The translations under genes and the position numbers were made by a program. Positions 104-19,054 of a stretch of 64,000 nt of DNA are shown here, piece by piece. Below the pieces are notes generated by a model that saw only the letters and a program-made list of their open reading frames with translations, was not told where the DNA came from and did not search any database. Within the stretch, counting starts at the first letter, position 1. The number at the start of each line of letters is the position of its first letter. The DNA is from a virus: the IMG/VR virus record IMGVR_UViG_3300027877_000005; one strand, given 5' to 3'.

Positions 104-140
104 GTACCTGTACCAAATACATGAACCGGAGTACATGTAC
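104..140. repeat. Two GTAC-NN-GTAC boxes
   Basis: GTACCTGTAC at 104-113 and GTACATGTAC at 131-140; the same motif recurs at 12.6-17.3 kb. Confidence 0.8.
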
Positions 141-184
141 CTTAGCCCGGGTTCCGATATAGAGTTTTTTGGGTCAAGTCAGGG

Positions 185-213
185 TTGACAGGATACAAGT
201 ATTTTGGTATCCT
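185..213 (+). promoter_or_regulatory. sigma70/SigA-type promoter of the ligase operon
   Basis: TTGACA (185-190), 17-bp spacer, TG-G-TATCCT (208-213). Confidence 0.6.
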
Positions 214-268
214 TAATGTGGGTAAAATATTGCCTAAATTTTCTAAAAACTTTTTAGGAGAAAACTTT

Positions 269-445
269 ATGGAAAAACTTTTACGAATATCCGATATGAA
301 AGAATTTATTACATTGGGAAATAAAATGATGAAAGAATTATTCTCCAATGCAGTAAAAGATTATAAACCACCTAAACCTAAAAAATATACACATTATATA
401 ATATTTGGATGTAATCCAGATGGGAGAAAAGATTATGGAATATGA
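269..445 (+). CDS. Hypothetical protein (58 aa)
   Basis: AGGAG RBS before ATG 269; the track start (TTG 185) is the -35 box. Confidence 0.6.
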   Translation: MEKLLRISDMKEFITLGNKMMKELFSNAVKDYKPPKPKKYTHYIIFGCNPDGRKDYGI

Positions 446-2279
446 TTTTAGAGAAATTCTTGATATAGGATTAGAAATAGAATTTAGTAATCTAAAACGT
501 GAAACACCTAATTTTATAAATAATATGCAAAGAAAATTAAATAATTTTAAGCATGTACATGATGCATCAACAGAAACTCCAGAATTAGTTTTAGGTAATA
601 TTCCTATACAATTTGAAGTAAATGGTAAAACTAATAAATTATTATCAATTCTTAGGAATAGAGGATTGGAAATATATGGTGGAGAATTAAATTCACCTAT
701 TTTAGCTGCAAATGATTTTAGACAACAAATTTATAGATTAATGGATTTTCTAATTGATATGGGAGAAAGTTTTTCTACTACTGAACAAGATAATCGTGGA
801 AGTATTCATGTCCACATAAATGTTAGTAAAGATATAAAACATAAACATTTGATAAGATTACTTGAAACAGGATTAGCTACCGAAGCTATATTTTATAGAT
901 TAGGTGGCATGGGTAGAGTAAATAGAGGTGTAAAAAATTCTTTTATATATCAAAGACCTCTAACTTTACCTCCCTGTGTTAGATATGATAACACTTATTA
1001 TCCAATTTTTGATTATAAAGATTTGTTAGAAAGTAAAAATAAAACAGATTTTTATGGTAAATATGGAGATACAGTTTCTCATATACGTTCTGGAAATCAT
1101 TATGTAACACAAAGATATATGGGATTGAATTTTTATTCAATTCCTTATCGTGGAAGTATTGAGTTTAGATATGCTAATAAAGTATTAATTCCAGAATGGA
1201 TTGTTGCGTGGATTATTTTGTGCCAAAGTTTTGTAAATTATGCTTTGACTAAACCTAAAGATGAAAGTTTTGAAAATACTTATAGAAAATTAGAAGATAA
1301 TATAGATATTCCACTACATGAGGTAAAGGAAATTTTTGATAAATTTGAAATTAGTGAAGATTATCAAATTACTTTATTTGATATTTGGAAACAAACAGAT
1401 ATGCCATATTTTAATGGCAAACAGATTGTAACACATCTTCAAAATCCATCTTTTTATACTGGTAATTTTCCATATATTACTAAGCCCATAGAAAATGCTG
1501 AAAGAATTATAGTTGATGATGTTAGAACAGTAAGTACTGCTAAAAGTAATAAATTAGTAAATATTCAAATGGAAAATAAACCAGAATTAGATTATGTAAT
1601 AGATACTAATGGAGTTAAATCTAAATTAAAAGAAATGGGAATTAGAGTTGAAGAAGATTTATTTGTAAACCCTATTCAAATGAATAGAGATAATTATATA
1701 CGCAATTGGATGCGTGCAGGATTTAATATAGAAAATTATAGTAGAGAAGATGCAGATGAATATATACAACAAAGAGTTTTGAGAGAAAAGTCTATTCCTA
1801 TTTGTTTATTAGAACCTGGTATGGATTATGAATGTGATACTATTTATAATGATTTAAAGATTATATTTAATATAGATGAGCCTGATTCTAGAATTATTAA
1901 TTTATCTTTTTATGATATTCATCATGGTAATGAAAGTAGAATGATGAGAATTGAAACAGAAAGAAATGATGAATTAAATACTAGAATATTTAATCCAATA
2001 CCTTATATAAATGATTGTCATAGAAATCCTGAAACATATTTTAATCAAGAAGAAGAAGATAATCAAGAAGAAGATATAAACTTTGGAGAAGAATTTGGGG
2101 ATGCTAATCCAGATATAAATAATTTTCAGGGAAATATAAATGAATTAAGAATAGCCGCTAATAATGCCGCTAATGCTATGCATAATATTAGATGGGAAGT
2201 AGCTCAAAATAATCAATGGAATATTGTTCCTGATGATAATCAACAAAATAATAATCCAAATCAAGGAAATGGGAGATAA
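435..2279 (+). CDS. Putative amidoligase (Amidoligase_2-like, glutamine synthetase fold) with acidic and Asn/Gln-rich C-terminal extension
   Basis: Motifs GLEIEF, GELNSPIL, GSIHVHIN, RYMGLNF, GSIEFRY; GGGAGA RBS before ATG 435. Confidence 0.85.
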   Translation: MEYDFREILDIGLEIEFSNLKRETPNFINNMQRKLNNFKHVHDASTETPELVLGNIPIQFEVNGKTNKLLSILRNRGLEIYGGELNSPILAANDFRQQIYRLMDFLIDMGESFSTTEQDNRGSIHVHINVSKDIKHKHLIRLLETGLATEAIFYRLGGMGRVNRGVKNSFIYQRPLTLPPCVRYDNTYYPIFDYKDLLESKNKTDFYGKYGDTVSHIRSGNHYVTQRYMGLNFYSIPYRGSIEFRYANKVLIPEWIVAWIILCQSFVNYALTKPKDESFENTYRKLEDNIDIPLHEVKEIFDKFEISEDYQITLFDIWKQTDMPYFNGKQIVTHLQNPSFYTGNFPYITKPIENAERIIVDDVRTVSTAKSNKLVNIQMENKPELDYVIDTNGVKSKLKEMGIRVEEDLFVNPIQMNRDNYIRNWMRAGFNIENYSREDADEYIQQRVLREKSIPICLLEPGMDYECDTIYNDLKIIFNIDEPDSRIINLSFYDIHHGNESRMMRIETERNDELNTRIFNPIPYINDCHRNPETYFNQEEEDNQEEDINFGEEFGDANPDINNFQGNINELRIAANNAANAMHNIRWEVAQNNQWNIVPDDNQQNNNPNQGNGR

Positions 2280-2282
2280 ACT

Positions 2283-3461
2283 ATGTGTATAATAACTGTA
2301 GTTGATGTAAAGCCAAATATTATTGATGTTAATGATATAAGAACAATAACCATAGCAAATTCTTTACTAGGAAATCCTGATGGATTTGGATATTATTTAT
2401 TCAAGGATAAATTCTCTAAATCAAAAGAAGATGCTCTAGTTTACTGGAGAGAAAATTTTGGACAATTTAGGGAAGAAAATTCTCAAGATTTTAATGGAAT
2501 TTATCATGTAAGAAAATCATCAGTAAATTATTATTCTCAAGATAATAAACATTTATCTGATGAAAAATCTCATCCATTTATTTATAATGATATTGTAGTT
2601 GCCCATAATGGTTTTCTAAATTTTAGATATACACATATTGATTCAGATAAATATGATAAACTTTTTATTGGAGATTTAATTGATAGTCAAAAGTTTGCCA
2701 TAGTTTTATCTAGCATGTGCCATAAAGGACATGTTACATTTGAAAATATAAAAAATGCTTTGAATATGTTTGGTGGTGCCTATGCTTTAGCAATTAAAGG
2801 TAAACTAGATAATTATATGTGGTTAGTTAGAGGTAAAGATAGGACACTAGTTCAAATGAATATTTATGATGGTAAAAATATTGTAGGAAATATTATAAAT
2901 ACTACTTCATTTAGTCAATTATTAATTGGAGAAAATTTATTAGATTATGATTACGACTATGATTTGAAAGAATTGAAAGAAAATACTGCTTATAAATATG
3001 ATTTAGGAAGTTATAAATTATTAGAAGTTGGTGAAATAAAACAAGATAGTTCTTATACTGCTAAACCTACTACAACAGTAGTTTATGATAGAGGTTATAG
3101 TAGAGAAGATAGAACAGTATATGAAGATATACTAACTTTAATGTATAAAATGGGATTAGTAATTTCTGATTTAGTAATTCTTTCAGAAATTATATTTGGA
3201 AAGCCTGTATTCATTCTTGATAAACAAGAATTTGATGGATTTAAGGTTATACTTACTAAACTAAATGAAGAAGCTAATCATCATGGTAGAATACAGATAT
3301 GGAGTGAAATTATAAAAGAAAGAAAAGAAAGTGTATATAAATTATATAATGATGAGAAAATTCAATATCCTTATTTTATGAATTCAAAAAATGAGCTAAA
3401 AGATATTTTTAGAAAAACTAAACGGGAGAGAAATGCTAATGAATTACTTACTGTACAATAA
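2283..3461 (+). CDS. Class II (Ntn) glutamine amidotransferase
   Basis: N-terminal MC nucleophile, NPDGFG, HVRKSS, SHPF, AHNGFL, DS motifs. Confidence 0.85.
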   Translation: MCIITVVDVKPNIIDVNDIRTITIANSLLGNPDGFGYYLFKDKFSKSKEDALVYWRENFGQFREENSQDFNGIYHVRKSSVNYYSQDNKHLSDEKSHPFIYNDIVVAHNGFLNFRYTHIDSDKYDKLFIGDLIDSQKFAIVLSSMCHKGHVTFENIKNALNMFGGAYALAIKGKLDNYMWLVRGKDRTLVQMNIYDGKNIVGNIINTTSFSQLLIGENLLDYDYDYDLKELKENTAYKYDLGSYKLLEVGEIKQDSSYTAKPTTTVVYDRGYSREDRTVYEDILTLMYKMGLVISDLVILSEIIFGKPVFILDKQEFDGFKVILTKLNEEANHHGRIQIWSEIIKERKESVYKLYNDEKIQYPYFMNSKNELKDIFRKTKRERNANELLTVQ

Positions 3462-4176
3462 AGGAAGTTATCTTAGTGCTAGACTTTTAGCTACATTATT
3501 AGGATTAAAACCAATATCTAGTCCTGAAAAAATAATTAATGGTAAAGTTAGTGTAAGATATGGAAACTCATCAGGAAACTTTTCTGAAGATACTTTGATA
3601 AACTCACCTGATGTAATAAAATTATGTAGTGATAGTTTAAGATTTTCTCAATGGTGTTTAGAGAATGGATTTAATAGTCCAATATTTGAATTATATAATC
3701 CAGATAAAAATGATTATGAGTATCCATTCTTGCTAAGGAAAAAGTATCATAAACAAGGTGATGATATAATTTTAGTAGATAATCCTGATAAAATAAAGGA
3801 AGCAGATAGTCTTGAAAAAAGATTTCATGTTCCTTTTGTTGAAACAGATTATGAATTAGGAATACATTTAGTAAATAGGAAAGTGATAAAGATTTTCAAG
3901 AAAGTTTCTAATAGTGAAAGTAGTGGATTTATTAGAAATCAAAAGAGAGGTTATCACTTTCATATTATAAATGATATAGATAATAATTTCAAGACAGCAC
4001 AAGATATTTGTCAAAGTTTATTTGAAAAAATGGGCTTAAATTTTGGAAGAGTAGATATCGCATATAATATAAAGAGTAAAAGATATATTATATGGGAAGT
4101 TAATACTGCACCAGGACTAAATCAATTAACCTCAGAAATTTATGCCCAAATTCTGAGGGAATTAATTTATGTTTAG
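3433..4176 (+). CDS. ATP-grasp ligase (phiEco32/RimK-like)
   Basis: YPFLLRK, FGRVDIA and WEVNTAPGL ATP-grasp C-terminal motifs. Confidence 0.85.
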   Translation: MLMNYLLYNKGSYLSARLLATLLGLKPISSPEKIINGKVSVRYGNSSGNFSEDTLINSPDVIKLCSDSLRFSQWCLENGFNSPIFELYNPDKNDYEYPFLLRKKYHKQGDDIILVDNPDKIKEADSLEKRFHVPFVETDYELGIHLVNRKVIKIFKKVSNSESSGFIRNQKRGYHFHIINDIDNNFKTAQDICQSLFEKMGLNFGRVDIAYNIKSKRYIIWEVNTAPGLNQLTSEIYAQILRELIYV

Positions 4177-4969
4177 AAACTTTATAGGACAAAAGAAGAT
4201 TATATTGGAATTAGAATCAATTTCTATAAAATTGAAAAATAATTTTGAAGGAGTAAATATTTTATTAAGAGGACAAGCTGGTTGTGGAAAAACTTTACTA
4301 GCAAAAAGTTTTCTAAATAATTTAGGTGAATATGTTTTTCAACTACCAAATAGAAACTCTAAATATGAATTACTTTGGAATAATAAAATTGCTGAATATA
4401 AATTTCATTTTGTAGATGAAATACATACTATATCACATATGGAAGTTTTATATCCAATAATGGATAGTAAAAAATATGTATTTGTATTTGCTAGTAATGA
4501 ATATGGAGATTTGCCAGATGCTTTTTTATCAAGAAATTTTGTATATTTCTTTGCTGAATATAGTTCTGAAGAAATTTCTAATATAGTTGTAGAATATGCT
4601 AAATCTAAAAATATTTTCTTGGAAGTAACTCTAGCAGATTTATTTGCTAAATATTCTAGAAACAATCCTAGAATAGTAAAGAATTTGTTTGATAGAGTTT
4701 TATTTATAATTAACAGGGGATATTACAAACTAAATTCTAGAGGAATATTATCTGCTCTAAATGATATTGGAATATATGATGGTGGATATACTGATTTAGA
4801 TATGAATTATCTACAAACTATAAAGAATTTAGGTGTAGCAAGTATTGACAGTATTTGTAGGATAATGAAAATTGATAAAAATACTATAGCAAATGAAATT
4901 GAGCCATTCTTAATATCTAAAGGACATATAGTAATAAGTCCTAGAGGGAGAAAGTTTATCAAATGGTAA
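4169..4969 (+). CDS. ruvB: RuvB-like AAA+ ATPase with C-terminal winged helix
   Basis: Walker A GQAGCGKT, Walker B FVDEIH, EVLYPIMD, SRNNPRI, C-terminal IEPFLISKGHIVISPRGRK typical of RuvB. Confidence 0.8.
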   Translation: MFRNFIGQKKIILELESISIKLKNNFEGVNILLRGQAGCGKTLLAKSFLNNLGEYVFQLPNRNSKYELLWNNKIAEYKFHFVDEIHTISHMEVLYPIMDSKKYVFVFASNEYGDLPDAFLSRNFVYFFAEYSSEEISNIVVEYAKSKNIFLEVTLADLFAKYSRNNPRIVKNLFDRVLFIINRGYYKLNSRGILSALNDIGIYDGGYTDLDMNYLQTIKNLGVASIDSICRIMKIDKNTIANEIEPFLISKGHIVISPRGRKFIKW

Positions 4970-6267
4970 CTCTTGTAAAAGATAACACAACAGTTGAATT
5001 AAATTCTTTAACATATTCATTAAAATCAAGAATAAGTGGATACTTAGCAGATGATATAGATAGAAGTCAAATGAGGCTTTGGATATTACTTAATACAAAA
5101 TCTGTATTTGCAATAACTATCTCTAAAACTTTAATGGGGAGTATGTGCATTAAAGTTGAAATGGATAGTAAGACAACATTAAAAGAACATGAAGTTAGTT
5201 TAGAAAAAATATATGAAAATGTAACTAATTTTCTTGCAGAATATCCTGATGTAAAGAAAGTTTTACTAGATGGAGAATATAAAGTATTTGCTATATGTAA
5301 CGATGCTAATGATTTTGTTCCCTATAAATTATCAGAAAGAAAGTTAGTAGAAGTAAATATAAATAATGTTTACCCTTTAGTTGATTCTATACAAAAAGTA
5401 GATGATGATTATTTTATATGTGCTTTTCCTGATATTCTCTTTTCAGTAGATAAATATACAACATTAAATCTGATTTGTATATTGGTAAAATATTATGTAG
5501 AAACTAGATTTCCAGTAATTGATAAAAATAGATTAGAAGATAAACAAATAATTAGTTTACCATCATTTACATTATGGGTTTATCATATAAAATCTTTATT
5601 GAAAGCTACTTGTAGCACAACTTATTCAGTAAAGAATTATTATGATAATATGAGTAAAATGAATATGTTAGCACATGTTCCAGCTAATAATTGGTGGATA
5701 GAAGAAAGTACACTAAAATTAGATACAAAAAGATTAATGGATTTTATTGCTAAGAAAGAAAGTAATATTATAGTAGTTAAAGATGATATTGATATGAAAG
5801 ATAATCCTGAAAAAGTAGATGAAATAGAAGAAATTGTAACACCTTATATTCCAGAATATTTCTCCCATGCTTTTATGGATGATGATTTACAAATAATGGA
5901 ATGGAGAGATTTTTTAGACGAATTCAATCGTTATGAAAGTAGTTATAAACAGTTTGATAGATATAATTTTGACATATTTGTTTCATCTATTATTATAGTT
6001 CCTACTGAAAATATTGGTAGTGTAGATAAGAACGATATAATCTTTTTAGGATTTGATGGTGGTAAATTTTATCTAACAATTAATTCTAAAGAAGAAGGTA
6101 AAGCTTTAACTTCTAATGAGGTAAACTTGAAAAATACTTTACAGGGATACTTTTGGAGAAAGTTTGGCTATGAAGTAGAAACAGTATTTGAAACTATGAC
6201 AGAAGATGATACTAAAAATTGTAATGTAAATTTATCATTCTTTCAAGATGGGTATATAGGAGAATAA
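4963..6267 (+). CDS. Hypothetical protein (434 aa)
   Basis: Long ORF overlapping the ruvB stop, in operon; no family recognised. Confidence 0.8.
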   Translation: MVTLVKDNTTVELNSLTYSLKSRISGYLADDIDRSQMRLWILLNTKSVFAITISKTLMGSMCIKVEMDSKTTLKEHEVSLEKIYENVTNFLAEYPDVKKVLLDGEYKVFAICNDANDFVPYKLSERKLVEVNINNVYPLVDSIQKVDDDYFICAFPDILFSVDKYTTLNLICILVKYYVETRFPVIDKNRLEDKQIISLPSFTLWVYHIKSLLKATCSTTYSVKNYYDNMSKMNMLAHVPANNWWIEESTLKLDTKRLMDFIAKKESNIIVVKDDIDMKDNPEKVDEIEEIVTPYIPEYFSHAFMDDDLQIMEWRDFLDEFNRYESSYKQFDRYNFDIFVSSIIIVPTENIGSVDKNDIIFLGFDGGKFYLTINSKEEGKALTSNEVNLKNTLQGYFWRKFGYEVETVFETMTEDDTKNCNVNLSFFQDGYIGE

Positions 6268-6268
6268 A

Positions 6269-6694
6269 ATGTTTTACTGCCCAAAGTGTGAATGTAAAGT
6301 ATATCCCGAAGTATCTATAAAGAATATTCAATCTGATTATTCTGTAAACTTATTTACTAACTGTGTAAATTTAGCTTTATGTGCTCTAGGAAATTTTCAA
6401 AATTTAGAGGTCACAGGATATAGATGTCCTCATTGTGGTAAAATATTTGAGCAAACTAGTTTATATATGAGAAGTCAAATTAGTAGTAAGATTGATAAAA
6501 TGGAAAAGTTTTTAATAGTTTCTGTAAAAAATAAGAAAGAGGAATATATAGATAATCATTTAGTTTTAGTAATTCCTCCAAGAATTATTCATGAAAGTGA
6601 ATTAGATTATTATAAAACATTCAATCCTTATAATGATGACAAGTATCTTATTATTAATAGACTAAATAAAATTACAGTTACTACTCCAAAATAA
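6269..6694 (+). CDS. Zinc-ribbon protein
   Basis: CPKC near the N-terminus and CPHC pair. Confidence 0.7.
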   Translation: MFYCPKCECKVYPEVSIKNIQSDYSVNLFTNCVNLALCALGNFQNLEVTGYRCPHCGKIFEQTSLYMRSQISSKIDKMEKFLIVSVKNKKEEYIDNHLVLVIPPRIIHESELDYYKTFNPYNDDKYLIINRLNKITVTTPK

Positions 6695-6704
6695 GAGGTG
6701 AAAA

Positions 6705-7700
6705 ATGGAACAACAAAGATTTTATGGAAGTGACCCCGAATACTTTATTTATATGAAAAAGAAGGAAACAGATTTTGGAACAATTCCTTTAATAGTTCCT
6801 CCAGCAGCTTTATTTGCAGATATGGGTGTAAAGTTTACCACATCTCCAAATGGTAAAAGAGTTTTGTTAGAAGAAGCTGATTATAGATTTATTGAAGATG
6901 GTGCAGCTCTAGAATTAAATTTCAAAAGACCATTGGCTAATTCTCAGGATATAAATAATATTTTATATAGTGCTTTAGATAATATTGATTATAAATTACG
7001 TCACATTAATTATGAATTGAAGATATCCAAAGATGTACTGGGATATTTTAGTGTAATTAAATACTGGAAAAATAGAGATAAATCTTTTACTGATTGTGTT
7101 AGATTTGGATGTGACCCAGACCAATTTCCTGAACTTTATATTATAAATGGTTTTGAAGAAGAAAATTGTAAAATAATTGATGCTTCAAAACATAATTATA
7201 GATATGCTGGTGGACATTTACATGTACAAAATATGTCTAAAGATAGTGATGTATATTATAGATATATGGAATTAGCACCAATTGTATTTGATTTTATTGT
7301 AGGAACAACTAATATTTTATTTCAAAGAGATAATAAAATTTTGACTCAAGAAAAAGCACGTCTAATATATTATGGAAGACCCGGCAGAATTCGTTTACAA
7401 AAATATTCTGATACAGTAAATGGTATAGAATATAGACCTCCAAGTAATCAATGGATAAATAATGGATATAATGTAAATTCAATGTTATATTCTGCTGATA
7501 TTGCAGCATCAATCATTGAAGATAATGGTGCACCTAAATTCTTTTCAGCATTTCAAGATAGAGTATTTGATATGTGGAAAGCATTAACAAATCATGATAG
7601 AGCAAAATCTAAAAATCTTCTTTTAGATAGTTTATCATGGGCATTAGATAATCACTATATTACTATCTTTCAATTGGAGAAAATCTATGGACAACTTTAA
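6705..7700 (+). CDS. phiEco32-like COOH-NH2 ligase type 2
   Basis: YGSDPEYF, EDGAALELN, FGCDPD, RYAGGHLH, YYGRPGRIR, GIEYRPPSN. Confidence 0.88.
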   Translation: MEQQRFYGSDPEYFIYMKKKETDFGTIPLIVPPAALFADMGVKFTTSPNGKRVLLEEADYRFIEDGAALELNFKRPLANSQDINNILYSALDNIDYKLRHINYELKISKDVLGYFSVIKYWKNRDKSFTDCVRFGCDPDQFPELYIINGFEEENCKIIDASKHNYRYAGGHLHVQNMSKDSDVYYRYMELAPIVFDFIVGTTNILFQRDNKILTQEKARLIYYGRPGRIRLQKYSDTVNGIEYRPPSNQWINNGYNVNSMLYSADIAASIIEDNGAPKFFSAFQDRVFDMWKALTNHDRAKSKNLLLDSLSWALDNHYITIFQLEKIYGQL

Positions 7701-9134: not shown

Positions 9135-9199
9135 TAATAAATCGTGAGGTAAGTTAGACAAATGAATACATATTAAATATTTTCTTATCGGAGGTTAAT

Positions 9200-9825: not shown

Positions 9826-9840
9826 ATTTTGGAGGACAAA

Positions 9841-10236
9841 ATGATTGAATTCGAAAAAGCTGGTAAAATTTACCAAATTACATTCTATTTTCCTGATAAA
9901 CATAGTGAATTATATCGGCGGTATACTCATGCCAAATTATCTATCAAAATTATAAATGAAGAAAATCCTAACGATTATGCTTGGGAAACTATTGATGAAA
10001 CATTTGCTAAATGTAATATTTATTGTGATGAATTTAATAAAAATAGGGGTAGGTTTCAGGCTCTAACTAATCTATCTAATAGTGTTTTGTTTAGGGATAT
10101 GTTCAATAAATATGATAGGAAAATGATTTGGGAAAAATACTTTGAAAAGTATGGATATCCCCCAAAGAATAAAGCAATTTCCTATGAAAGATTAGTATAT
10201 CTTCTAACCCATAGAAAACATAGTCGTAAAGATTAG
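9841..10236 (+). CDS. Hypothetical protein
   Basis: GGAGG RBS before ATG 9841. Confidence 0.7.
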   Translation: MIEFEKAGKIYQITFYFPDKHSELYRRYTHAKLSIKIINEENPNDYAWETIDETFAKCNIYCDEFNKNRGRFQALTNLSNSVLFRDMFNKYDRKMIWEKYFEKYGYPPKNKAISYERLVYLLTHRKHSRKD

Positions 10237-10242
10237 TTAGAT

Positions 10243-10279
10243 AAAAAAGACTGCCCATAGTTTATTCTATGGGCAGTCT
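10243..10279 (-). terminator. 13-bp perfect hairpin with U-tract on the minus strand
   Basis: AGACTGCCCATAG-TTTATT-CTATGGGCAGTCT preceded by A6 on +. Confidence 0.55.
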
Positions 10280-10301
10280 ATCCCAAACTTTGGAGGAAAC
10301 A

Positions 10302-10487
10302 ATGTTGCCATTCAGTAAAGAATTAAAAGTTATATCTAAAATATTATTGCCTGATGAAACTTATCATATTAAATTACAAGAAGAATTAGAGAATAAAGAT
10401 AAAGTAAAAAGACACCAACCTAAATATTCTGAAGAAGATTATAAAGAATTGATTGATGATAAAATTTTAGGAATATTGGGAGGATAA
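10302..10487 (+). CDS. Hypothetical protein (61 aa)
   Basis: GGAGG RBS before ATG 10302; the track start 10269 lies inside the hairpin. Confidence 0.6.
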   Translation: MLPFSKELKVISKILLPDETYHIKLQEELENKDKVKRHQPKYSEEDYKELIDDKILGILGG

Positions 10488-10489
10488 TT

Positions 10490-10663
10490 ATGTTTACAAT
10501 AACTATTACATACTTAGTTGATGGTAATCCTGAAACATATACTGTAAAGAATGTATCTGAAATTCATACTAATTATAATAAAACTACATATAAAGTAGGT
10601 GATGATGAGTATGTATGTTATTATGTAATAAAAATTAAATGTAAACTTCAGATGGAAAACTAA
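10490..10663 (+). CDS. Small hypothetical protein (57 aa, not in ORF track)
   Basis: GGAGG RBS; MFTITITYLVDGNPETY...QMEN; fills the operon gap. Confidence 0.6.
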   Translation: MFTITITYLVDGNPETYTVKNVSEIHTNYNKTTYKVGDDEYVCYYVIKIKCKLQMEN

Positions 10664-10664
10664 T

Positions 10665-10748
10665 ATGATAAATGAATGGTTATTAATTATCATTATAATA
10701 ATCTTTACAGCAGGATATTTAGTGGGAAAGGAAAATAAAGATGACTGA
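10665..10748 (+). CDS. 27-aa single-TM peptide
   Basis: MINEWLLIIIIIIFTAGYLVGKENKDD; coupled to both neighbours. Confidence 0.5.
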   Translation: MINEWLLIIIIIIFTAGYLVGKENKDD

Positions 10749-10956
10749 TAATTCTTGGATGAGCCAATATATATTATCATTAAGAAAAGAATCTATAAAA
10801 GAATTAATGGATGAAATGTTAATGTATCATAGAATTTATATACTCAATGGGGAAAAGATGCCATCTAAAGAATTCACTCTATATAAAGAATGTCAAAGTG
10901 AATTGATAAAACGGTATGTAACTATAAAAGATATGGTGAATGGAGAAAACAAATGA
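10741..10956 (+). CDS. Hypothetical protein
   Basis: 71-aa ORF, ATGA overlap with the next gene. Confidence 0.65.
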   Translation: MTDNSWMSQYILSLRKESIKELMDEMLMYHRIYILNGEKMPSKEFTLYKECQSELIKRYVTIKDMVNGENK

Positions 10957-11732
10957 TTACAAAAAGTATAATAAATAAAGTTGGATTAGAAGCTGAGGTA
11001 TTAATTCGTAGTAAAAAGAACGAATTAGTAATTCCATCTGATTATAATTTACCCTGTGATGATTTTATAGTATTAGGTGAAATAAGAGCACCTGCAAAAG
11101 ATAATATTCCAGATACTTTATATGCTTTCATGAAAGAATTTTATATGTTTAATAAATCCCTTGAATACTTTAACTTTCATACTGATATAGAAAAAGGATG
11201 GGCTACAATTAGCCCTGAAGATTATACAAATATTTTACGTAAAATGGGTAGTAAAGAAATTGCTACTTGTAAAAATATATATAAGAATGTTGATATTCTA
11301 AAATTGACAGATGCCAATGTATCAGATGGAAAGATTTTATCCCATAATATTTCTACAGGATTACATATACACTTTTCTTCTGATATAGTTGTTCATAATA
11401 TATATCATGTTCCTGATATGTATCAAGTAAAGAATAATTTATTTGTACATTCTGCCCAAGATAAAAGATTTGATGAAGAAACTAAAATATATTCTTTACT
11501 AACAAATAATGCTATTCGTAGTATTATATCTGCTTTTGATAAAGATATCTTTCCTAAATATAATATTGAAAATGTAACTCTAAAATATCGTAAGCCGGGA
11601 TTTTATGAAGAAAAATCTTGGGGATTTGAATATAGAAGTTTACCTTTTAATCAATTAGTATATGATAATCTAACAGAAATTGTAGAATATGCTTTTAATA
11701 GGTTAGATAAGTTATCCAAAGTTCTGGTGTAA
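10953..11732 (+). CDS. Third glutamine-synthetase-fold carboxylate-amine ligase
   Basis: VGLEAEV (ExE), LGEIRA, TGLHIHFS, YRKPG, WGFEYRSLP. Confidence 0.75.
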   Translation: MITKSIINKVGLEAEVLIRSKKNELVIPSDYNLPCDDFIVLGEIRAPAKDNIPDTLYAFMKEFYMFNKSLEYFNFHTDIEKGWATISPEDYTNILRKMGSKEIATCKNIYKNVDILKLTDANVSDGKILSHNISTGLHIHFSSDIVVHNIYHVPDMYQVKNNLFVHSAQDKRFDEETKIYSLLTNNAIRSIISAFDKDIFPKYNIENVTLKYRKPGFYEEKSWGFEYRSLPFNQLVYDNLTEIVEYAFNRLDKLSKVLV

Positions 11733-11733
11733 A

Positions 11734-11934
11734 ATGAATATTTATAAAGTAACCGTAGAATATTCTAAACAATCTGGTAGAGATATAGTCTTAGCTAAAA
11801 GTGTATATGAAAATGTTAGAATGTGTTTAGTTGCTGAAAATTATATACGCATATTAGAGAAGGGTAAATTAGAGATTAAAAAGATTTCATATGAAAGAAT
11901 TTGGTCAGTAAAGATTGAAAGGGAAATAGGATGA
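11734..11934 (+). CDS. Hypothetical protein
   Basis: 66-aa ORF coupled to its neighbours. Confidence 0.6.
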   Translation: MNIYKVTVEYSKQSGRDIVLAKSVYENVRMCLVAENYIRILEKGKLEIKKISYERIWSVKIEREIG

Positions 11935-12041
11935 TAACAATTCCTTTAGAACTTCTAGTTATGTTTATTGTATTTATTATATTCTGTATAGTAATGATGA
12001 TAGTATGGTTTATATTAGCTTTAATTATAAAAAAGATATGA
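11931..12041 (+). CDS. 36-aa hydrophobic membrane peptide (not in ORF track)
   Basis: MITIPLELLVMFIVFIIFCIVMMIVWFILALIIKKI; ATGA overlaps at both ends. Confidence 0.55.
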   Translation: MITIPLELLVMFIVFIIFCIVMMIVWFILALIIKKI

Positions 12042-12202
12042 AACCATTACCTTCTAAATTAGCTTTATGGATAAATGCTTGGCTAGAATTAGTAGATGCT
12101 ATATTATGTATATTATCCTTTACATTAATAAGAACATCATTTAGTTATAGATTTATAGTATGGGATTGTATACAGGTAGCAAAGAGTAAACAAAATAGGT
12201 AA
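12038..12202 (+). CDS. Small hypothetical protein
   Basis: ATGA overlap with the upstream peptide gives start 12038 (MKPLPSKL). Confidence 0.55.
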   Translation: MKPLPSKLALWINAWLELVDAILCILSFTLIRTSFSYRFIVWDCIQVAKSKQNR

Positions 12203-12576
12203 TATTTGTATACTACAAACTCATATCTAATTTCATAATTTCTAAAATTTGTTATCGGTCAGTTTGTAAAACTTTGCTGTTACTAAAACCCCCCAAATAA
12301 ACTTTAGAAAATTCCTAAAATATGCTATAAAGGAGAATTTATATGAAATAAAATGAATAAATAAAGATAAACAATAATTATTTATCAAATTTATAAAGCA
12401 ACAAAATATACCCATAAATATAGAATGATATACCATGTATGATATATACGCACATACATGGAAGTAAAGTTTATTTACCAGTTTGTAAACTTTTACTGTT
12501 ACTATTATTGAATATATAAAGTTTATGGTTCAGATAAAGTTTAGTCAGGTATAAAGTTTATTGATAAACAAAGTTT

Positions 12577-12608
12577 AGCCAGCCGCTTGGTTCAGGGCTG
12601 GCTTTTTT
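12577..12608 (+). terminator. Intrinsic terminator
   Basis: AGCCAGCC/GGCTGGCT stem then T6. Confidence 0.75.
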
Positions 12609-12880
12609 GTTACCTGTACTCACTGCTGGGTACCTGTACCCCTGGGTCACACAGGCACAAATTCTGTAGGTACCTGTACTGTTTGTATACATGGCTAGGT
12701 ACCTGTACTCAATCTTTAAGGTACAGCCCGGCTCCCGGGTTCTAGAACCAGCCCTGAGTCAAGTCATTCGTACTGGTACAGATTTCGTGCTATACTTTTA
12801 CATAGGCAGAAAAACGCCTATCGCCTGGTTCAATCCAACCATATCGAAAATGAACCAGGGTACATATACAGGAGGTGTAT

Positions 12881-13258
12881 ATGAAAAAGAATGATAGTGT
12901 GTCCGTACCAAAGGTAGACGCTGTACAGAAAGCGGTATTCAGCACCGTATTCGCTATACTGTACAACCCTGCCAAGCCACGTGACCCAGCAATCAAATCT
13001 GATTCACCATCCAGAGATGATGTACCATGGGTTGTTATTATACCAGACCTGTCTGTTGTAGCTACTGTATTAGACAAGGATGGCGACCCAGTATGTGGTC
13101 ACGTGAACCCGCAGTACGCATCAGCATATGCTGGTCGTCTGTATAATCGCCTGGTTCAAAACCCTGAATTGCTTGATTCATATAGGAAGAACCCAGACGT
13201 GTATCCAATCAATCGTGGGTACATGGGTAAAATGATTCCTATTCAATTTGAGGTCTAG
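12881..13258 (+). CDS. Hypothetical protein
   Basis: GGAGG RBS before ATG 12881; extended -10 TGCTATACT at 12788-12796. Confidence 0.75.
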   Translation: MKKNDSVSVPKVDAVQKAVFSTVFAILYNPAKPRDPAIKSDSPSRDDVPWVVIIPDLSVVATVLDKDGDPVCGHVNPQYASAYAGRLYNRLVQNPELLDSYRKNPDVYPINRGYMGKMIPIQFEV

Positions 13259-13270
13259 ATGAGGTGAACC

Positions 13271-13399
13271 ATGATTACTAATACTAATAAACTCAAGATG
13301 AATCAGACCCTGCGGCGGGGTCAGCTTGACAATATCAAACGCCGCACCCCAAAAGCCAAAAAGACCCATAAAGGAGGTTCACATGGCAAACACAAGTAA
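13271..13399 (+). CDS. 42-aa basic peptide (not in ORF track)
   Basis: GAGGTG RBS; MITNTNKLKMNQTLRRGQLDNIKRRTPKAKKTHKGGSHGKHK. Confidence 0.55.
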   Translation: MITNTNKLKMNQTLRRGQLDNIKRRTPKAKKTHKGGSHGKHK

Positions 13400-13946
13400 T
13401 CCTACCAAAGCATCACCTACTGTACTGGTTCTGCCATCACCGCACCGCATTTCAGGTGACGTTGATGCTATGCTTGAATCAACCGTTGCAGAACGGTTCA
13501 AGACCATCATTCTGGTAAAGAATGGTGAGAAAGATACTGGTAAGGGACAGTTGGTTCTGTCTCATACTCCCGATTCAAAAGACCCCAATGTACAGGTTAG
13601 CACCTGGAATGCGGGTCTAGGTCATCTGTTACGGTTCGTGCAAGCGGGGGTCAATGCATGGACTAGCGGTGTTGGTCTATCAGGTGATGGGTCAGCGATG
13701 TACGTTGCTAATACTGCTGACACCGTGTTCAAAACCGTACCCCAGCTCAAGGGTTACGACATCGTGCTGGTTCCGAATGGTCGTGCTGGAACAGCCAAAT
13801 ACCGCATCCCGGTGCCTGAATTGGTAAGCCAAATCCTGAACCGTGCCAAGGTTATTAGCACCTGCGTTGAAGCCTTTGGTATCGCTCAGGGTAAGGAACG
13901 TACCAAAAAGGCTACTGATGCACCGCAGATTACAGCTATACTCTAA
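13383..13946 (+). CDS. Hypothetical protein (187 aa)
   Basis: AAGGAGG RBS before ATG 13383 (MANTSNP). Confidence 0.8.
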   Translation: MANTSNPTKASPTVLVLPSPHRISGDVDAMLESTVAERFKTIILVKNGEKDTGKGQLVLSHTPDSKDPNVQVSTWNAGLGHLLRFVQAGVNAWTSGVGLSGDGSAMYVANTADTVFKTVPQLKGYDIVLVPNGRAGTAKYRIPVPELVSQILNRAKVISTCVEAFGIAQGKERTKKATDAPQITAIL

Positions 13947-14030
13947 TCTGCCAGTTTCTGAACCCGGGCAGTTATACAGCTACCCGGGTTCCCATCTCCA
14001 TACCACCATTCGTTACAAAGGAGTTTTACT

Positions 14031-14282
14031 ATGCCACGAACTGCCAAACCTAAGACTGCACCAGCAGTACAGCCACAACAGCCCTTCATTACTGGCGACC
14101 CACACGCAGGTACGCCAGAGAATCAATTGGTTATATATAACTACATGATGGGTCTGACCCCTGAGCAACAGGGTATTGTACGTGGGTTACTTAAATCCAT
14201 GCAAGCGGGCGGGTACAAAAACGGTTGTCACTACCTGAAAGCGTTTTTCAATGACCGACCCACACCGGTTCAGCTAGCGTAA
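14031..14282 (+). CDS. Hypothetical protein (83 aa)
   Basis: AAGGAG RBS. Confidence 0.7.
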   Translation: MPRTAKPKTAPAVQPQQPFITGDPHAGTPENQLVIYNYMMGLTPEQQGIVRGLLKSMQAGGYKNGCHYLKAFFNDRPTPVQLA

Positions 14283-14296
14283 GCACCGGTACATCC

Positions 14297-14366
14297 AACT
14301 GGGTTGGGTTCAGAGGCTACCACACCGCAACGAACCCACGATCCGGGTTCAGAGCCTAACCCAGTT
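14297..14366 (+). ncRNA. Putative structured RNA element (unclassified)
   Basis: 15-bp outer stem with two G-U pairs on + enclosing a GAACCC/GGGTTC hairpin. Confidence 0.35.
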
Positions 14367-14450
14367 ACCCCTGCACCAACGTTACATATATAGGAGACAA
14401 CAACATGACGTGAACCATGGGTGGTATACCTTATAGCCACTAATTGAATT

Positions 14451-14483
14451 GACCCCCGCCTGGGACAGCGGGGGCATTTTTTT
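14451..14483 (+). terminator. Intrinsic terminator
   Basis: CCCCCGC/GCGGGGG stem then T7. Confidence 0.8.
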
Positions 14484-14554
14484 ACTTGTACCCAGGAGAT
14501 GGGTACCTGTACTGGGTTCCGGGCGCCGGGCAGGGGATGGGTACCAGAATGCCT

Positions 14555-14580
14555 GAGTACATGCACAAGTGCATGTACTC
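14555..14580. repeat. Perfect 12-bp inverted repeat GAGTACATGCAC-AA-GTGCATGTACTC
   Basis: Read directly; upstream of promoter 14646. Confidence 0.85.
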
Positions 14581-14645
14581 ACGATTTCTGGTTCATGTAT
14601 AAGTACAAGCACCAGATGATTGTAAAAATTGGTCTAAAAATGCCA

Positions 14646-14674
14646 TTGACGTGGTACGGTATCCCTGGTATAAT
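14646..14674 (+). promoter_or_regulatory. sigma70/SigA promoter
   Basis: TTGACG, 17 bp, TG-G-TATAAT. Confidence 0.8.
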
Positions 14675-14722
14675 TGCTCTGTAAGAGTTAAAATCCAACC
14701 TGAACCAGCAAAGGAGATTGAA

Positions 14723-15442
14723 ATGAAAACCAAGTTACATGCACCAGTTGATGAAGTTGACCCACTAGCAGAACGGAACCAGCTAGTAGATACACTCATC
14801 AATACATCGTTTCAGCTATCCGCTACGGGTACGATATTCACCATTGGTACAGAATCGAATCCCAGTTGGGAGGACATCTTATTCGTTCTGAACCGCCTGT
14901 ACACTACCGGTTACGCTGAAGAGTTCAAACTTCTCCCATTCAATGTTGAACCAGCAATACTTGTATCAGGCTTGTCAAAGGAAGTAGTGGCATGGCTGGT
15001 TCCGCTCATCATTCAGGCGATTGATAGGAAAGTGATGGGTTCAGAGATTGATATCTTAGCCCCCAATAACAAAAACCTGGTACGTTTGGCTGATGTCCTT
15101 GGGTGGTATTGGTATCACACGTTACATGGACCCAAGCCTGTGGTCAATCAGTTAGTGAGCATTGAGCGGCACCATAAGGTGGTTCAGAACGCTTCTCTGA
15201 GTTGCCCATTGTGCTACCACCAGTTCATACCAGCACCCGGTTATAAGACCCAATCTGAAAAGGCATTTGCATTTGCCAAGTGGCTACCGACCCACCTGGT
15301 TCATACCCACATGTTTACTGATACAAGTAAAACAAGCGTTGCCAAGTGTACTTGTGGTACGTGTTCAGGTAAAATCACAAAATACACAGGCGACCCAGTT
15401 AAGAACCGCAAGCTGTTACAGAAGAAAGGTGGTACAAAATGA
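14723..15442 (+). CDS. Hypothetical protein with C-terminal Cys/His zinc-binding motifs
   Basis: AAGGAG RBS before ATG 14723; CPLC...HLVHTH and CTCGTC. Confidence 0.75.
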   Translation: MKTKLHAPVDEVDPLAERNQLVDTLINTSFQLSATGTIFTIGTESNPSWEDILFVLNRLYTTGYAEEFKLLPFNVEPAILVSGLSKEVVAWLVPLIIQAIDRKVMGSEIDILAPNNKNLVRLADVLGWYWYHTLHGPKPVVNQLVSIERHHKVVQNASLSCPLCYHQFIPAPGYKTQSEKAFAFAKWLPTHLVHTHMFTDTSKTSVAKCTCGTCSGKITKYTGDPVKNRKLLQKKGGTK

Positions 15443-15639
15443 GAAAGGTGATTGTGTATACAAAAACCTTGACTGTGTTACTTGTAATCGTAGATAGGTA
15501 CAGGAATGGTAAGTGTGTCAGTCATGCCTATCCAAATCCGTACCCAGCATCAGTTCAACGCTTGATGAAGTTACTTGAGAACCGTGATTCTGAGGTCAGT
15601 GGAGCAAGGGGGGTACTTATACTCACATTCAGTTTCTGA
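15439..15639 (+). CDS. Hypothetical protein (66 aa)
   Basis: ATGA overlap; its stop codon lies inside motif A. Confidence 0.7.
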   Translation: MRKVIVYTKTLTVLLVIVDRYRNGKCVSHAYPNPYPASVQRLMKLLENRDSEVSGARGVLILTFSF

Positions 15640-15656
15640 ACCGTAGCAGTTACATA

Positions 15657-15687
15657 AACCCTGGTGTATGAACCAGGGTTCTTTTTT
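15657..15687 (+). terminator. Intrinsic terminator
   Basis: AACCCTGG/CCAGGGTT stem then C and T6. Confidence 0.75.
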
Positions 15688-15766
15688 GCCTGGGAACCAA
15701 GGCTGGGTACCTGTACTCACCCTCCCTGGGTCAACCTGAAATGAGTTTGTGGGTACCAGAGACCCT

Positions 15767-15790
15767 GAGTACAAGTATATACTTGTACTC
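15767..15790. repeat. Perfect 24-bp palindrome GAGTACAAGTATATACTTGTACTC
   Basis: Read directly; ends 24 bp before the -35 of promoter 15814. Confidence 0.85.
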
Positions 15791-15813
15791 AAGATTCTTG
15801 GGTCGATTGCCTC

Positions 15814-15842
15814 TTGACAACCTGGAACCAGTATGCTAAAAT
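15814..15842 (+). promoter_or_regulatory. sigma70/SigA promoter
   Basis: TTGACA, 17 bp, TG-C-TAAAAT. Confidence 0.8.
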
Positions 15843-15853
15843 AAAGAGAAAAA

Positions 15854-16444
15854 ATGGAGACTAACATGATAATTTGGACATTAATTGGCATATTTATACA
15901 GTGGGTCGGTAAACTCTTCAAGAGGGCAGACGTACTCTTTATAGGGTACTACCTAGCTGGGTCAGGTAAGACACGCTCATTACCAGTATATGTACACGAA
16001 GCTGTATTGAATGAGCTTGGGTGGTTACGTCAATACTGTCATCCTGATACATATATAGTCCACCGGTTTGATAATCTAGTGTTATTCCATACCATAGGAA
16101 AGTGTTGGGTCAAGAAAGACGGCGACCTTATCTATATCAAGGATAGGTACATGTTCTACCCACTTTGTCCCGATAGTGATACTCATTTCAGCGATTGTGG
16201 GTGCAAACCTGAATGGAAAGTATACTCAAGTCTAACCAAGCATATGTATATCACACCACAACGATATACTGATAAATTATTGAATTCAAGATTTAGATAC
16301 TTACACTTCCACCGAACCATGGGTAGATTCATATCTGTTACTGCTGATATATGGGGTATCAAGTACGAAATCAATGATGAGTTTTGGGTCAACAAGGGTA
16401 AGCCATTCGATGTGTACTCTGAGATACCTATATATCATATCTGA
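15854..16444 (+). CDS. Hypothetical protein (196 aa)
   Basis: ORF directly after promoter 15814; no family recognised. Confidence 0.7.
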   Translation: METNMIIWTLIGIFIQWVGKLFKRADVLFIGYYLAGSGKTRSLPVYVHEAVLNELGWLRQYCHPDTYIVHRFDNLVLFHTIGKCWVKKDGDLIYIKDRYMFYPLCPDSDTHFSDCGCKPEWKVYSSLTKHMYITPQRYTDKLLNSRFRYLHFHRTMGRFISVTADIWGIKYEINDEFWVNKGKPFDVYSEIPIYHI

Positions 16445-16473
16445 TACCAGTTTGTATGAGGGTGCAGTTACAT

Positions 16474-16503
16474 AATGTGGGTTGGTGTGAACCGACCCAC
16501 ATT
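16474..16503 (+). other. 13-bp RNA hairpin with GNRA (GUGA) loop, no U-tract
   Basis: AATGTGGGTTGGT-GTGA-ACCGACCCACATT, one U-G pair on +. Confidence 0.6.
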
Positions 16504-16633
16504 ACAGCCCCTGAATACGCTCATTGATACATGTACTCATCCTCTCTGGTGCTAATCATAATATGAGTCAATAGGTACCTGTACCATTAAAATAGAGTAC
16601 AGGAACTCATGCTTGCTGGTACAAAATTGCTTA

Positions 16634-16661
16634 TTGACAAATCTGTCCCAATCACTATAAT
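16634..16661 (+). promoter_or_regulatory. sigma70/SigA promoter
   Basis: TTGACA, 16 bp, TATAAT. Confidence 0.75.
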
Positions 16662-16684
16662 GTATAGTTAAGGAGAATAAAATC

Positions 16685-16954
16685 ATGAATAATAACCCGT
16701 TTTATTGTGTTGTACATCCTACTACATCCTTTATTAATTCCACTGGATTCCAGGCAGTGGATGATGTAGATGCTATCCAGAAAATGCTTGATGATATGAA
16801 AAGATTCAATCACAAGTATGCCATGCTGTACCGCTTGAATGGTACACGTTATCCATTCTTTGTATGTGTAATAAATTGCCATTTAGTTCCTGGTACAGCA
16901 GATGTATTCAATGACAATGTGACAGGAAAGGTGGTGCAGTTCCATCAAATGTAA
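16685..16954 (+). CDS. Hypothetical protein (89 aa)
   Basis: AAGGAG RBS after promoter 16634. Confidence 0.75.
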   Translation: MNNNPFYCVVHPTTSFINSTGFQAVDDVDAIQKMLDDMKRFNHKYAMLYRLNGTRYPFFVCVINCHLVPGTADVFNDNVTGKVVQFHQM

Positions 16955-16985
16955 ATACCAGTTTGTATTGGGGTGCGGTTATAAG

Positions 16986-17012
16986 AATGGGGTGGTTCCA
17001 TACCACCCCATT
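16986..17012 (+). other. 11-bp hairpin after motif A, no U-tract
   Basis: AATGGGGTGGT-TCCAT-ACCACCCCATT. Confidence 0.55.
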
Positions 17013-17332
17013 ACTATCCCCAAGATGAGAGGTAATAGGTACCTGTACCTGTTTGCCAGTTTGTAATGCGTTGCTGTTATGAGAGGCTCTGGTACGTTAG
17101 AATGAGAAAATATGGGTACCTGTACCTGTGAGTTTGTAATCCGAACCTGTTATGGTACTGCTGTATACATGTATGAGTTTGCACATAGGTACTTGTACCA
17201 AAAATCATGAGTACATGTACTCAGGGTATCTGGTTCCACCAGTTTGTAATCCGTTCCTGTTATGGGGCTTGGGTACATGTACCAGCAAAGCTGAGTACAT
17301 GTACTCTATTTACTTGGTATAGATGCTTAAAT

Positions 17333-18922: not shown

Positions 18923-19054
18923 CTAATTCAGACCAGGATTGCCTGGATTACTACTGTGTGCTGGCTGATACTGTGTGGCACACAGTATCCATACCCCCCT
19001 ATTTGGATAAAAATTGTCCGGTTTGCGCTCATTACCCGTGTACCAGTACCCCAC
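18923..19054 (-). CDS. Possible 43-aa peptide
   Basis: GGGGG RBS then GTG; MGYWYTGNERKPDNFYPN... Confidence 0.3.
   Translation of the reverse strand: MGYWYTGNERKPDNFYPNRGVWILCATQYQPAHSSNPGNPGLN

Follow-up and report, generated by a model that had tools for sequence, protein, structure and literature searches.

In T4-type phages, PeSL (promoter-early stem-loop) repeats, each of which combines a stem-loop terminator with a sigma70 early promoter, flank ORFans and mediate modular shuffling (Arbiol et al., 2010, PMC2839356; Comeau et al., 2014, PMC4122927). In this study, we analyzed a 64,000-nucleotide stretch of the virus record IMGVR_UViG_3300027877_000005, referred to as the window, in which a preliminary description had reported boxes of the form GTAC-NN-GTAC (GTACNNGTAC) upstream of the plus-strand promoters. 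Two further kinds of system bear on these boxes. Dispersed asymmetric operators of global phage or plasmid regulators, such as the C1 operators of P1 and the KorB sites of RK2, lie at variable distances from their promoters and form one regulon. In roadblock-assisted termination, the Reb1 or TTF-I sites of RNA polymerase I (Pol I) are located past a T-rich release element, and CodY, CcpA, and LacI act as roadblocks in bacteria. We know of no phage example of roadblock-assisted termination, nor of a phage counterpart to the protein-assisted intrinsic terminator described for eukaryotic Pol I. The boxes of the window were found to represent an asymmetric 14-bp element, designated box B. We see roughly an even chance that box B is an operator-like site of a putative protein, placed inside PeSL-like terminator-promoter cassettes as an insulator or coordinating element.

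The window belongs to a large tailed phage of an uncultured, siphovirus-like lineage with a 1714-aa tape measure. Its plus strand begins with an AT-rich operon (1-12.2 kb, 26% GC) encoding an amidoligase, an ATP-grasp enzyme, a RuvB-like ATPase, and a glutaminase, which is referred to as the ligase operon and is followed by an island of seven ORFan genes (12.6-17.3 kb, 40-48% GC). The pattern GTACNNGTAC had 16 exact matches in the 64 kb, at positions 104, 131, 12630, 12670, 12699, 12770, 14503, 15707, 16575, 17039, 17116, 17189, 17211, 17273, 17295, and 19040, whereas shuffled sequences gave an expectation of 0.35 and a maximum of 3. Two copies precede the ligase operon, 13 lie in the island, and one is at 19040. 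The preliminary description had listed 14 copies in 104-17304; the enrichment was real, while the count in that range is 15 (2 + 13), with the copy at 19040 in addition. All 16 copies lay outside called genes and six of them were in 17039-17304, both in agreement with that description. After correction for GTAC density, the non-coding DNA of the island contained 13 GTAC pairs at +6 where 1.09 were expected (P 1.8e-10), and its coding DNA 0 where 0.41 were expected; an equal frequency in coding DNA, which had been named as the observation that would overturn the boxes, was thus not found. The tetranucleotide GTAC was enriched across the island overall and had the expected frequency elsewhere in the genome.

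No box was present beyond 19049 in the window, and the minus-strand promoter 21487 is therefore preceded by none, as reported. We also recovered a further 20 kb 5′ of the window (L020 and L041) from identical metagenome contigs, and no box was found there. Since two strong sigma70-like promoter sequences were recognized by eye in this box-free DNA, in the tRNA region of L041, the boxes mark one set of junctions, and the claim that they mark plus-strand promoters in general did not hold. As a separate observation, words resembling half boxes were over-represented on both strands inside the island genes (12881-16954) in comparison with synonymous-codon shuffles (z = 3 to 5.7): GGTTC/GAACC occurred 20 times versus 8.3, GGGTC/GACCC 19 versus 7.2, TGGGT/ACCCA 28 versus 15.1, and GTAC 35 versus 24.9. 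This points to selection at the DNA level over the whole island.

To place the boxes in an evolutionary context, the contigs of the 21 homologues of a 239-aa island protein (52-74% identity) were reduced to seven further distinct genomes, L029, L032, L035, L037, L043, L044, and L045. All seven contained a syntenic island that was GC-rich and GTAC-rich and, where the locus extended far enough, lay between an AT-rich left block and late genes. The count matrix of 41 sites and its information content defined box B as the 14-mer T(G/A)GGTAC(C/T/A)TGTAC(C/T), with an informative TGG on the left, CT in the centre, and only a pyrimidine on the right. In the eight genomes, GGTAC[CTA]TGNAC occurred 57 times on the gene strand and 0 times as a non-palindromic reverse match; the three reverse matches were all AT-centred palindromic sites. 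This asymmetry does not support the dimeric regulator proposed in the preliminary description, as an operator of a dimeric repressor would show dyad symmetry. In the two most distant relatives, L032 and L044, the second GTAC was changed to GCAC, GAAC, or GACC, with GGTACYTG and the flanks retained, so GTAC-NN-GTAC is a special case of GGTAC-YT-G-N-AC. In alignments of orthologous intergenic regions, the box, a second GGTACC designated B2, and the promoter hexamers were invariant in diverged flanks. Upstream of the 239-aa gene, the terminator, the box, GGGTACCAGAAT, the hairpin, an A-rich tract, and TTGAC-N17-TGnTATAAT were kept and the rest had diverged. At the level of sequence comparison, these results demonstrate that the boxes are under purifying selection as DNA, co-oriented, confined to non-coding cassette boundaries, and held at fixed offsets from hairpins. 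Because the relatives share ancestry and the copies within a genome are paralogous, the orientation bias and some of the fixed spacings may partly reflect descent.

The position of the box was fixed with respect to terminators. The distance from the end of the T-run to GGTAC was 17-21 nt, whereas the distance from the box to the -35 of the best downstream promoter varied from 58 to 169 nt. In an explicit search for hairpins followed by T-runs, the box was at +18 to +21 in 13 of 13 junction-preceding island terminators from seven genomes; one further terminator in L037, which leads into a gene-free array, had its box at +60, and about 30 terminators elsewhere were without a box. The spacers between T-run and box differed in sequence and usually contained the word GAACCA. 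Given the fixed offset from the T-run and the variable distance to the -35, the box is anchored to terminators and not to promoters. UP elements are A/T-rich, are located at -40 to -60, and contact the alpha-CTD of RNA polymerase; box B contains G+C and has the -35 distances given above, and the proposal of a UP-like site was consequently not supported. The boxes and palindromes had been placed about 25-140 bp upstream of the -35 of promoters 185, 14646, 15814, and 16634, in line with our measurement of 24-134 bp, and the boxes thus neither overlap the -35/-10 nor stand in the close apposition to it that is typical of dimeric-repressor operators. The LexA/SOS-box, CtsR, CIRCE, sigma54, and N4-type hairpin-promoter signals were also considered and rejected by inspection, as neither their spacing nor their sequence fits.

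Among the spacings between GTAC copies in the island, 6 bp (15 times) and 16 bp (7 times) dominated, the latter corresponding to GTACC-N9-GAGTAC, in which a second GGTACC is placed 9 nt before a palindrome. Both palindromes listed in the preliminary description, at 14555-14580 (12-nt arms, central AA) and 15767-15790 (a perfect 24-mer), were exact. Nine such long palindromes were found in five genomes, all with 12-bp arms, a GAGTAC/GTACTC base, and centres of 0-9 nt; double compensatory changes occurred in 6 of 13 pairs, and none was broken within the 12-bp arms. The constant arms, variable centre, and compensatory changes indicate hairpins or cruciforms instead of dimer sites with fixed spacing, and the earlier view of these palindromes as fused half-sites was revised. 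Short 14-nt palindromes (GAGTACATGTACTC) were also present, and this minor GAGTACATGTACTC type was the only symmetric type of box.

At the 3′ end of the island, gene-free arrays of 4-6 box units were present in at least five genomes (L043, L035, L029, L037, and the window). The L043 array has six boxes at intervals of 78, 80, 79, 82, and 80 bp. Each array unit consists of box B, 4-15 nt, a 23-bp motif A, and a AAATACATGT-like element. The arrays occupy a gene-free zone of about 1 kb between converging early and late transcription, beside strong bidirectional terminators. The phasing of the sites (6, 16, and about 38 bp, and the 80-bp arrays) suggests that they may serve multi-site binding. Motif A (CAGTTTGTAA-N7-CTGTTA) had nine copies, all on the plus strand (12260-17262 and L020:9684), which were located between stop codons and terminators or, in arrays, 4-15 nt past each box.

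The individual junctions of the window, whose elements are on the plus strand unless stated otherwise, were annotated as follows. At 1-30, the RNR unit that comes before the window is closed by a terminator hairpin with T-run, with a motif A just before the window (L020:9684). It is followed by the ligase-operon junction, with box B CTGGTACCTGTACC at 101-114, a hybrid type II/type I box GAGTACATGTACCT at 129-142, and the sigma70-like promoter of the operon at 185-213 (TTGACA, 17 nt, TG-extended TATCCT). The left edge of the island is formed by a terminator at 12578-12608, preceded by four TAAAGTTTA repeats (12465-12560), and by a half box (12611-12622) and three full boxes B (12627-12640, 12667-12680, and 12696-12709) within 12611-12709; the GGTAC of the first full box begins 20 nt past the T-run. 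The region 12737-12795 contains a GGGTTCTAGAACC palindrome, GTCAAGTCA, and a promoter with a TG-extended TATACT, in whose -35/spacer the match at 12770 (GTACTGGTAC) is found. The ligase-operon junction (90-222) is a paralogue of this first island junction (12690-12805), which confirms that the same box links the ligase operon to the GC-richer island. The alignment of the two places the match at 12770 opposite the -35/spacer of the promoter at 185. This match, which had been described as a box preceding the extended -10 at 12788, is exact and, judged by paralogy, is probably part of the promoter and not a true box. The repeat TAAAGTTTA also attracted attention in its own right: its four copies before the first island terminator are spaced at about 17-50 bp, one copy lies before box 104 (54-62), and one is on the minus strand at 12298. 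It is among the most repeated 9-mers of the L032 island, with 4 copies, and it or a one-letter variant is visible in the junction sequences of L043 and L044. It may be a second iteron-like signal.

Junction J1 consists of a terminator (14452-14483), box B1 TGGGTACCTGTACT (14500-14513), whose GGTAC begins 18 nt past the T-run, and a segment at 14539-14580 with B2 GGGTACCA, a 9-nt spacer, and the 12-bp-arm hairpin GAGTACATGCAC-AA-GTGCATGTACTC. The conserved sigma70 promoter of the 239-aa gene follows at 14646-14674 (TTGACG, 17 nt, TG-extended TATAAT). The leader upstream of the J1 terminator (14385-14450) is conserved at the nucleotide level, with almost no differences in L037 and L029; it contains an AGGAG site and tiny open reading frames (ATG ACG TGA; ATGGGTGGTATACCTTATAGCCACTAA) and may encode a leader peptide or act as an RNA element. 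Junction J2 has a motif A (15630-15652), a terminator (15656-15687), box B1 at 15704-15717 with its GGTAC again beginning 18 nt past the T-run, B2 with a 9-nt spacer and the perfect 24-nt palindrome GAGTACAAGTATATACTTGTACTC at 15751-15790, and the sigma70 promoter of a 192-aa gene at 15814-15842. Junction J3 comprises a box B, a 9-nt spacer, and the degenerate type II palindrome GAGTACAGGAACTC (16572-16608), and the sigma70 promoter of an 89-aa gene at 16634-16661, which matches the consensus in 12/12 positions. The gene-free 3′ array (17036-17306) contains four boxes B (17036, 17113, 17186, and 17270), type II palindromes at 17209 and 17293, and motif A at 17057, 17130, and 17240, in units of 73-84 bp. 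The outlying variant GTACCAGTAC at 19037-19052, to which no strand was assigned, lies 16 nt beyond the right-hand end of a segment whose orientation is reversed in comparison with some relatives. The promoters 16634 (12/12), 14646, 15814, and 185 are the four top-scoring intergenic sigma70-like sites between 1 and 20 kb; the genic sites 5969 and 11536 score equal to 14646 and 15814.

The gene content between the junctions varied among the relatives. A core trio encoding proteins of 187 aa, 83-101 aa, and 216-239 aa was present in 5/5 island genomes compared, with other genes coming and going, and the contig gene lists of the remaining three genomes show genes of the trio sizes in the same order. 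L037 carries an extra DUF1360 cassette with boxes at both sides, and past this non-homologous cargo, motif A and the terminator are where its nucleotide sequence again becomes homologous to the window. The 239-aa core protein (14723-15442) has a C-terminal cysteine cluster, CPLC...C-x-C-x2-C, the first pair of which is invariant in the 21 homologues, and no recognized fold. Compared with L029, L037, and L032 (counterparts L029:3800-5300 and L037:4700-6250), the window, L035, and L043 carry an inverted version of the segment 17338-19024, which includes a gene for about 200 aa (17940-18545, minus strand). In the window it is bounded by the perfect 12-nt inverted repeat AAACCGGACAAT / ATTGTCCGGTTT, and no invertase gene was seen. 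The phage is present in wetland and freshwater-sediment samples. The contigs L011-L019 are near-identical (99.5-100% identity) and add no evolutionary depth; L011-L017, independent metagenome contigs from the same phage, start or end at junctions (12043-12489, 16623, and 17274), consistent with structural variation at the population level.

In the wider gene setting, the minus strand from 17.9 kb onward encodes a methylase, lysis genes, the 1714-aa tape measure, the portal, and the terminase, with the large terminase gene 30 kb away. The 20 kb 5′ of the window contain DnaB, nucleases, an apparent tRNA cluster, primase, an N6_N4 methylase, and RNR, and the ~84 kb examined in total are only part of the genome. 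There are two or three methyltransferase genes, including the C5 methylase at 19254-20282 and the N6_N4 methylase upstream of the window. The region L041:7300-9900, about 10-12 kb 5′ of the window, appears by eye to be a large tRNA gene cluster; together with a GC-rich island under host-type promoters, it raises the idea that the island genes might be tuned to host codon usage before the phage tRNAs are made. The tRNA and Rfam scans of the window gave no match. No nucleotide match to deposited phages was obtained for the island or the ligase operon, and the best match of TerL to a cultured or deposited phage was an environmental virus with 23.5% identity. An island protein was not found in IMG/VR, and the TerL relatives there were without the box, these records being fragments. 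The matches from an IMG/VR scan for box pairs were confined to coding repeats of a collagen-like Gly-Thr type and a giant-virus contig, and were judged to be due to chance. A GTDB genome scan for the box plus motif A gave 59 single matches, no more than a rough chance estimate; 0/59 had a second box, and no prophage or host clue emerged. A literature search with the box string found unrelated primers only.

The locus shares with PeSL its repeated modules of a terminator stem-loop and a strong sigma70-like early promoter, and in both cases the modules flank ORFans in a hyperplastic region where the homology of relatives breaks at the modules. An early promoter accompanies each repeat, as the four top intergenic matches all lie in junctions and TTGAC-N17-TGnTATAAT is kept in the orthologues. 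The stem-loop is 5′ of the promoter (12578-12608, 14452-14483, 15656-15687, and in the relatives), and the conserved trio, variable cassettes, and L037 homology correspond to a hyperplastic ORFan region with indels at the modules. In contrast, the copies are not alike over the tens of bases that would serve homologous recombination, except for the J_lig/J0 pair: the shared patches are 6-23 bp, instead of long near-identical repeats, and paralogous junctions have in common only the 14-bp box, GGGTACCAGA, the hairpin base, and the promoter hexamers. Other differences are the unrelated, siphovirus-like phage, the gap of 100-170 bp between terminator and promoter with box B at a fixed offset and GGTACC-N9-hairpin, the motif A before the terminator, and the gene-free 80-bp arrays. 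Because the junction copies share only short blocks, we regard the system as working like PeSL and have not filed it as a member. With the P1 C1 and RK2 KorB operators, box B shares the arrangement of a short conserved site over many transcription units at variable promoter distance, whereas the sites here are tied to terminators and set in regular arrays, and the cognate regulator is only putative. The likeness to Reb1/TTF-I lies in a site at a fixed short distance past a T-rich element, with 18-21 nt close to the reach of the polymerase front edge; the terminators here are ordinary intrinsic hairpins with T-runs that should work alone, and a roadblock would be a purely inferred addition.

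In the cassette model that we favor, the full module consists of a stop codon, the 23-bp motif A, a terminator hairpin with T-run, about 18 nt containing GAACCA, box B1, 36-46 nt, B2 (GGTACC), 9 nt, a 12-bp-arm hairpin with the base GAGTAC/GTACTC, an A-rich tract, and a sigma70 promoter. Such modules punctuate the GC-rich ORFan island, presumably one of early genes transcribed by the host RNA polymerase, and one paralogous copy opens the neighboring AT-rich ligase operon. A putative sequence-specific DNA-binding protein, encoded by phage or host, might occupy the untranscribed spacer behind each terminator. The bound protein would stop read-through, insulating each cassette, and/or switch the units together, with UP-like activation being less likely. 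The offset of 18-21 nt is approximately the downstream reach of RNA polymerase in elongation-complex footprints, which favors a read-through stop and/or joint switching over UP-like activation. The modules also work like PeSL cassettes, as joints where ORFan genes are gained, lost, and swapped, and the gene-free arrays at the island end could be a multi-site platform for the same putative protein. A more specific version, to which we give a low probability, is that box B is a programmed roadblock/insulator, at which a protein 18-21 nt past the T-run halts polymerases that escape the terminator. The cassettes would then be insulated and switchable as a set, with the 80-bp arrays serving as a last barrier, or as a DNA-entry stop, where early DNA meets late DNA.

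Several results weigh against this model. The search for a box-binding protein was negative: Pfam and PHROG searches with all island proteins and 20 further small proteins gave nothing above threshold, profile searches against the PDB with the 187-aa and 83-aa families had no match, and the protein atlas contained no usable match. For the 239-aa protein, AF2 gave a weak model (predicted local distance difference test [pLDDT] 65.6) without a Foldseek match; the model of the 187-aa protein was good (pLDDT 80, pTM 0.75) and had no fold match either (Foldseek E above 0.2; best VIA Z 4.6). The only candidate DNA-binders seen were two small proteins with sub-threshold helix-turn-helix (HTH) hints, L041:4467-4856 (Sigma70_r4/GerE, E 0.002-0.004) and L041:2933-3427 (HTH_23, E 0.02), and both are encoded in the replication module 15-17 kb 5′ of the window. 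The link to terminators is not universal, as boxes without a preceding terminator occur at 16572, in the arrays, at L037:2336 directly before a ribosome binding site, and at L029:2911 and L029:3106 inside a called open reading frame. In L032, the most distant relative, the offset from T-run to box is 37 and 73 nt, and in a 62%-identity relative of the ligase operon (L038) the corresponding junction has split GTACC half-sites only. The fixed offsets could also stem in part from common descent of duplicated modules, and the enrichment of half-box words inside the island genes is not predicted by the roadblock version.

Two alternatives assign the boxes to DNA transactions other than gene control. 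The boxes may be core sites of site-specific recombination or preferred microhomology that mobilizes, deletes, or inverts ORFan cassettes, with regulation being secondary. They are present at every type of cassette boundary, including those without terminator or promoter (L037:2336 and L029:3106) and the gene-free "empty" units, the gene content between boxes differs among relatives, and many metagenomic contigs break at junctions (12043-12489, 16623, and 17274). GTAC boxes also stand just outside both ends of the inverted segment with the ~200-aa gene, but that inversion ends at the separate 12-nt inverted repeat AAACCGGACAAT. The sole mapped breakpoint is at motif A plus terminator and not within the box, the ~84 kb showed no member of an integrase, invertase, or transposase family, and an evolvability benefit alone is unlikely to hold 11-14 bp invariant at such divergence. 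With regard to integron-like attC sites, the boxes and motif A do not fit GTTRRRY by eye, and no recombinase family was seen in the same ~84 kb, which are part of the genome only. We consider recombination an unlikely primary role. Likewise improbable, and a shade more so, is that the boxes, and above all the 80-bp 3′ array, are iteron-like sites of a nucleoprotein machine, whether in a replication origin, at the boundary of packaging or of a terminal repeat, or as a stop signal of the T5 kind that marks where the first-entering DNA ends on its inner side. The first-step-transfer DNA of T5 ends in a non-coding region rich in repeats and palindromes. The tandem units of 78-82 bp form regular arrays of 4-6 in at least five genomes, in a gene-free zone with bidirectional terminators adjoining, the island is compositionally distinct with host-type promoters like a first-expressed segment, and a separate TAAAGTTTA repeat cluster marks its other edge. 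Most boxes, however, occur singly or in pairs and are scattered over the gene junctions, an arrangement not typical of origins or pac sites. Genes for an initiator or a small terminase are not adjacent, the large terminase is 30 kb off, the replication genes are more than 20 kb away, and the phage showed no similarity to T5, with 23.5% identity for the best TerL match.

The other two alternatives concern transcription and its products. Box B as a second, later-acting promoter element of each cassette, recognized by a phage-specific RNA polymerase or a sigma-like factor, would explain why an asymmetric 14-mer is strictly co-oriented with the genes and 5′ of each of them, and the small protein L041:4467-4856, with its sub-threshold likeness to sigma70 region 4 and LuxR-type HTH, would be a candidate factor. 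We nevertheless hold this to be very unlikely, as arrays of 4-6 boxes have no downstream gene and run into terminators, two to four boxes per junction also occur, the boxes lie at widely differing distances from the gene starts, and the 84 kb showed no RNA polymerase of phage type. Least probable of all is a role at the RNA level, by GGUACC pairing or processing in read-through transcripts, or as clustered GTAC methylation sites that set promoter activity. The self-complementarity of GGTACC, the co-orientation of the boxes with transcription, and the two or three methyltransferase genes are compatible with this, but boxes behind strong intrinsic terminators are probably little transcribed. Methylation, which the preliminary description had offered as an option, appears from the sequences to be the weakest rival, because the second GTAC decays and several box-bearing relatives have no C5 methylase at the locus. 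Conservation is not centred on the tetranucleotide in the manner of Dam-GATC sites, since L032 and L044 have lost the second GTAC and kept the flanking box letters, and the conserved letters reach well beyond GTAC. Furthermore, GTAC has its expected frequency outside the island, and L029, L032, and L035 retain boxes with no C5 methylase at the locus.

What stands of the preliminary interpretation is a selected non-coding signal, for which a protein-binding site still appears to be the best reading; its UP-like, dimeric, fusion, and methylation components were not supported. A vague "promoter-upstream motif" has thereby become a defined and testable architecture, in which a 14-bp box is locked to terminators and hairpins in swappable early-gene cassettes of a phage lineage without a cultured relative. 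The locus adds evidence that cassette-style shuffling of ORFans is widespread beyond the T4-type phages. If a box-bound protein enforces termination or coordinates the early units, a regulated component would be added to PeSL-type cassettes, and the module would represent a compact natural terminator-insulator-promoter part.

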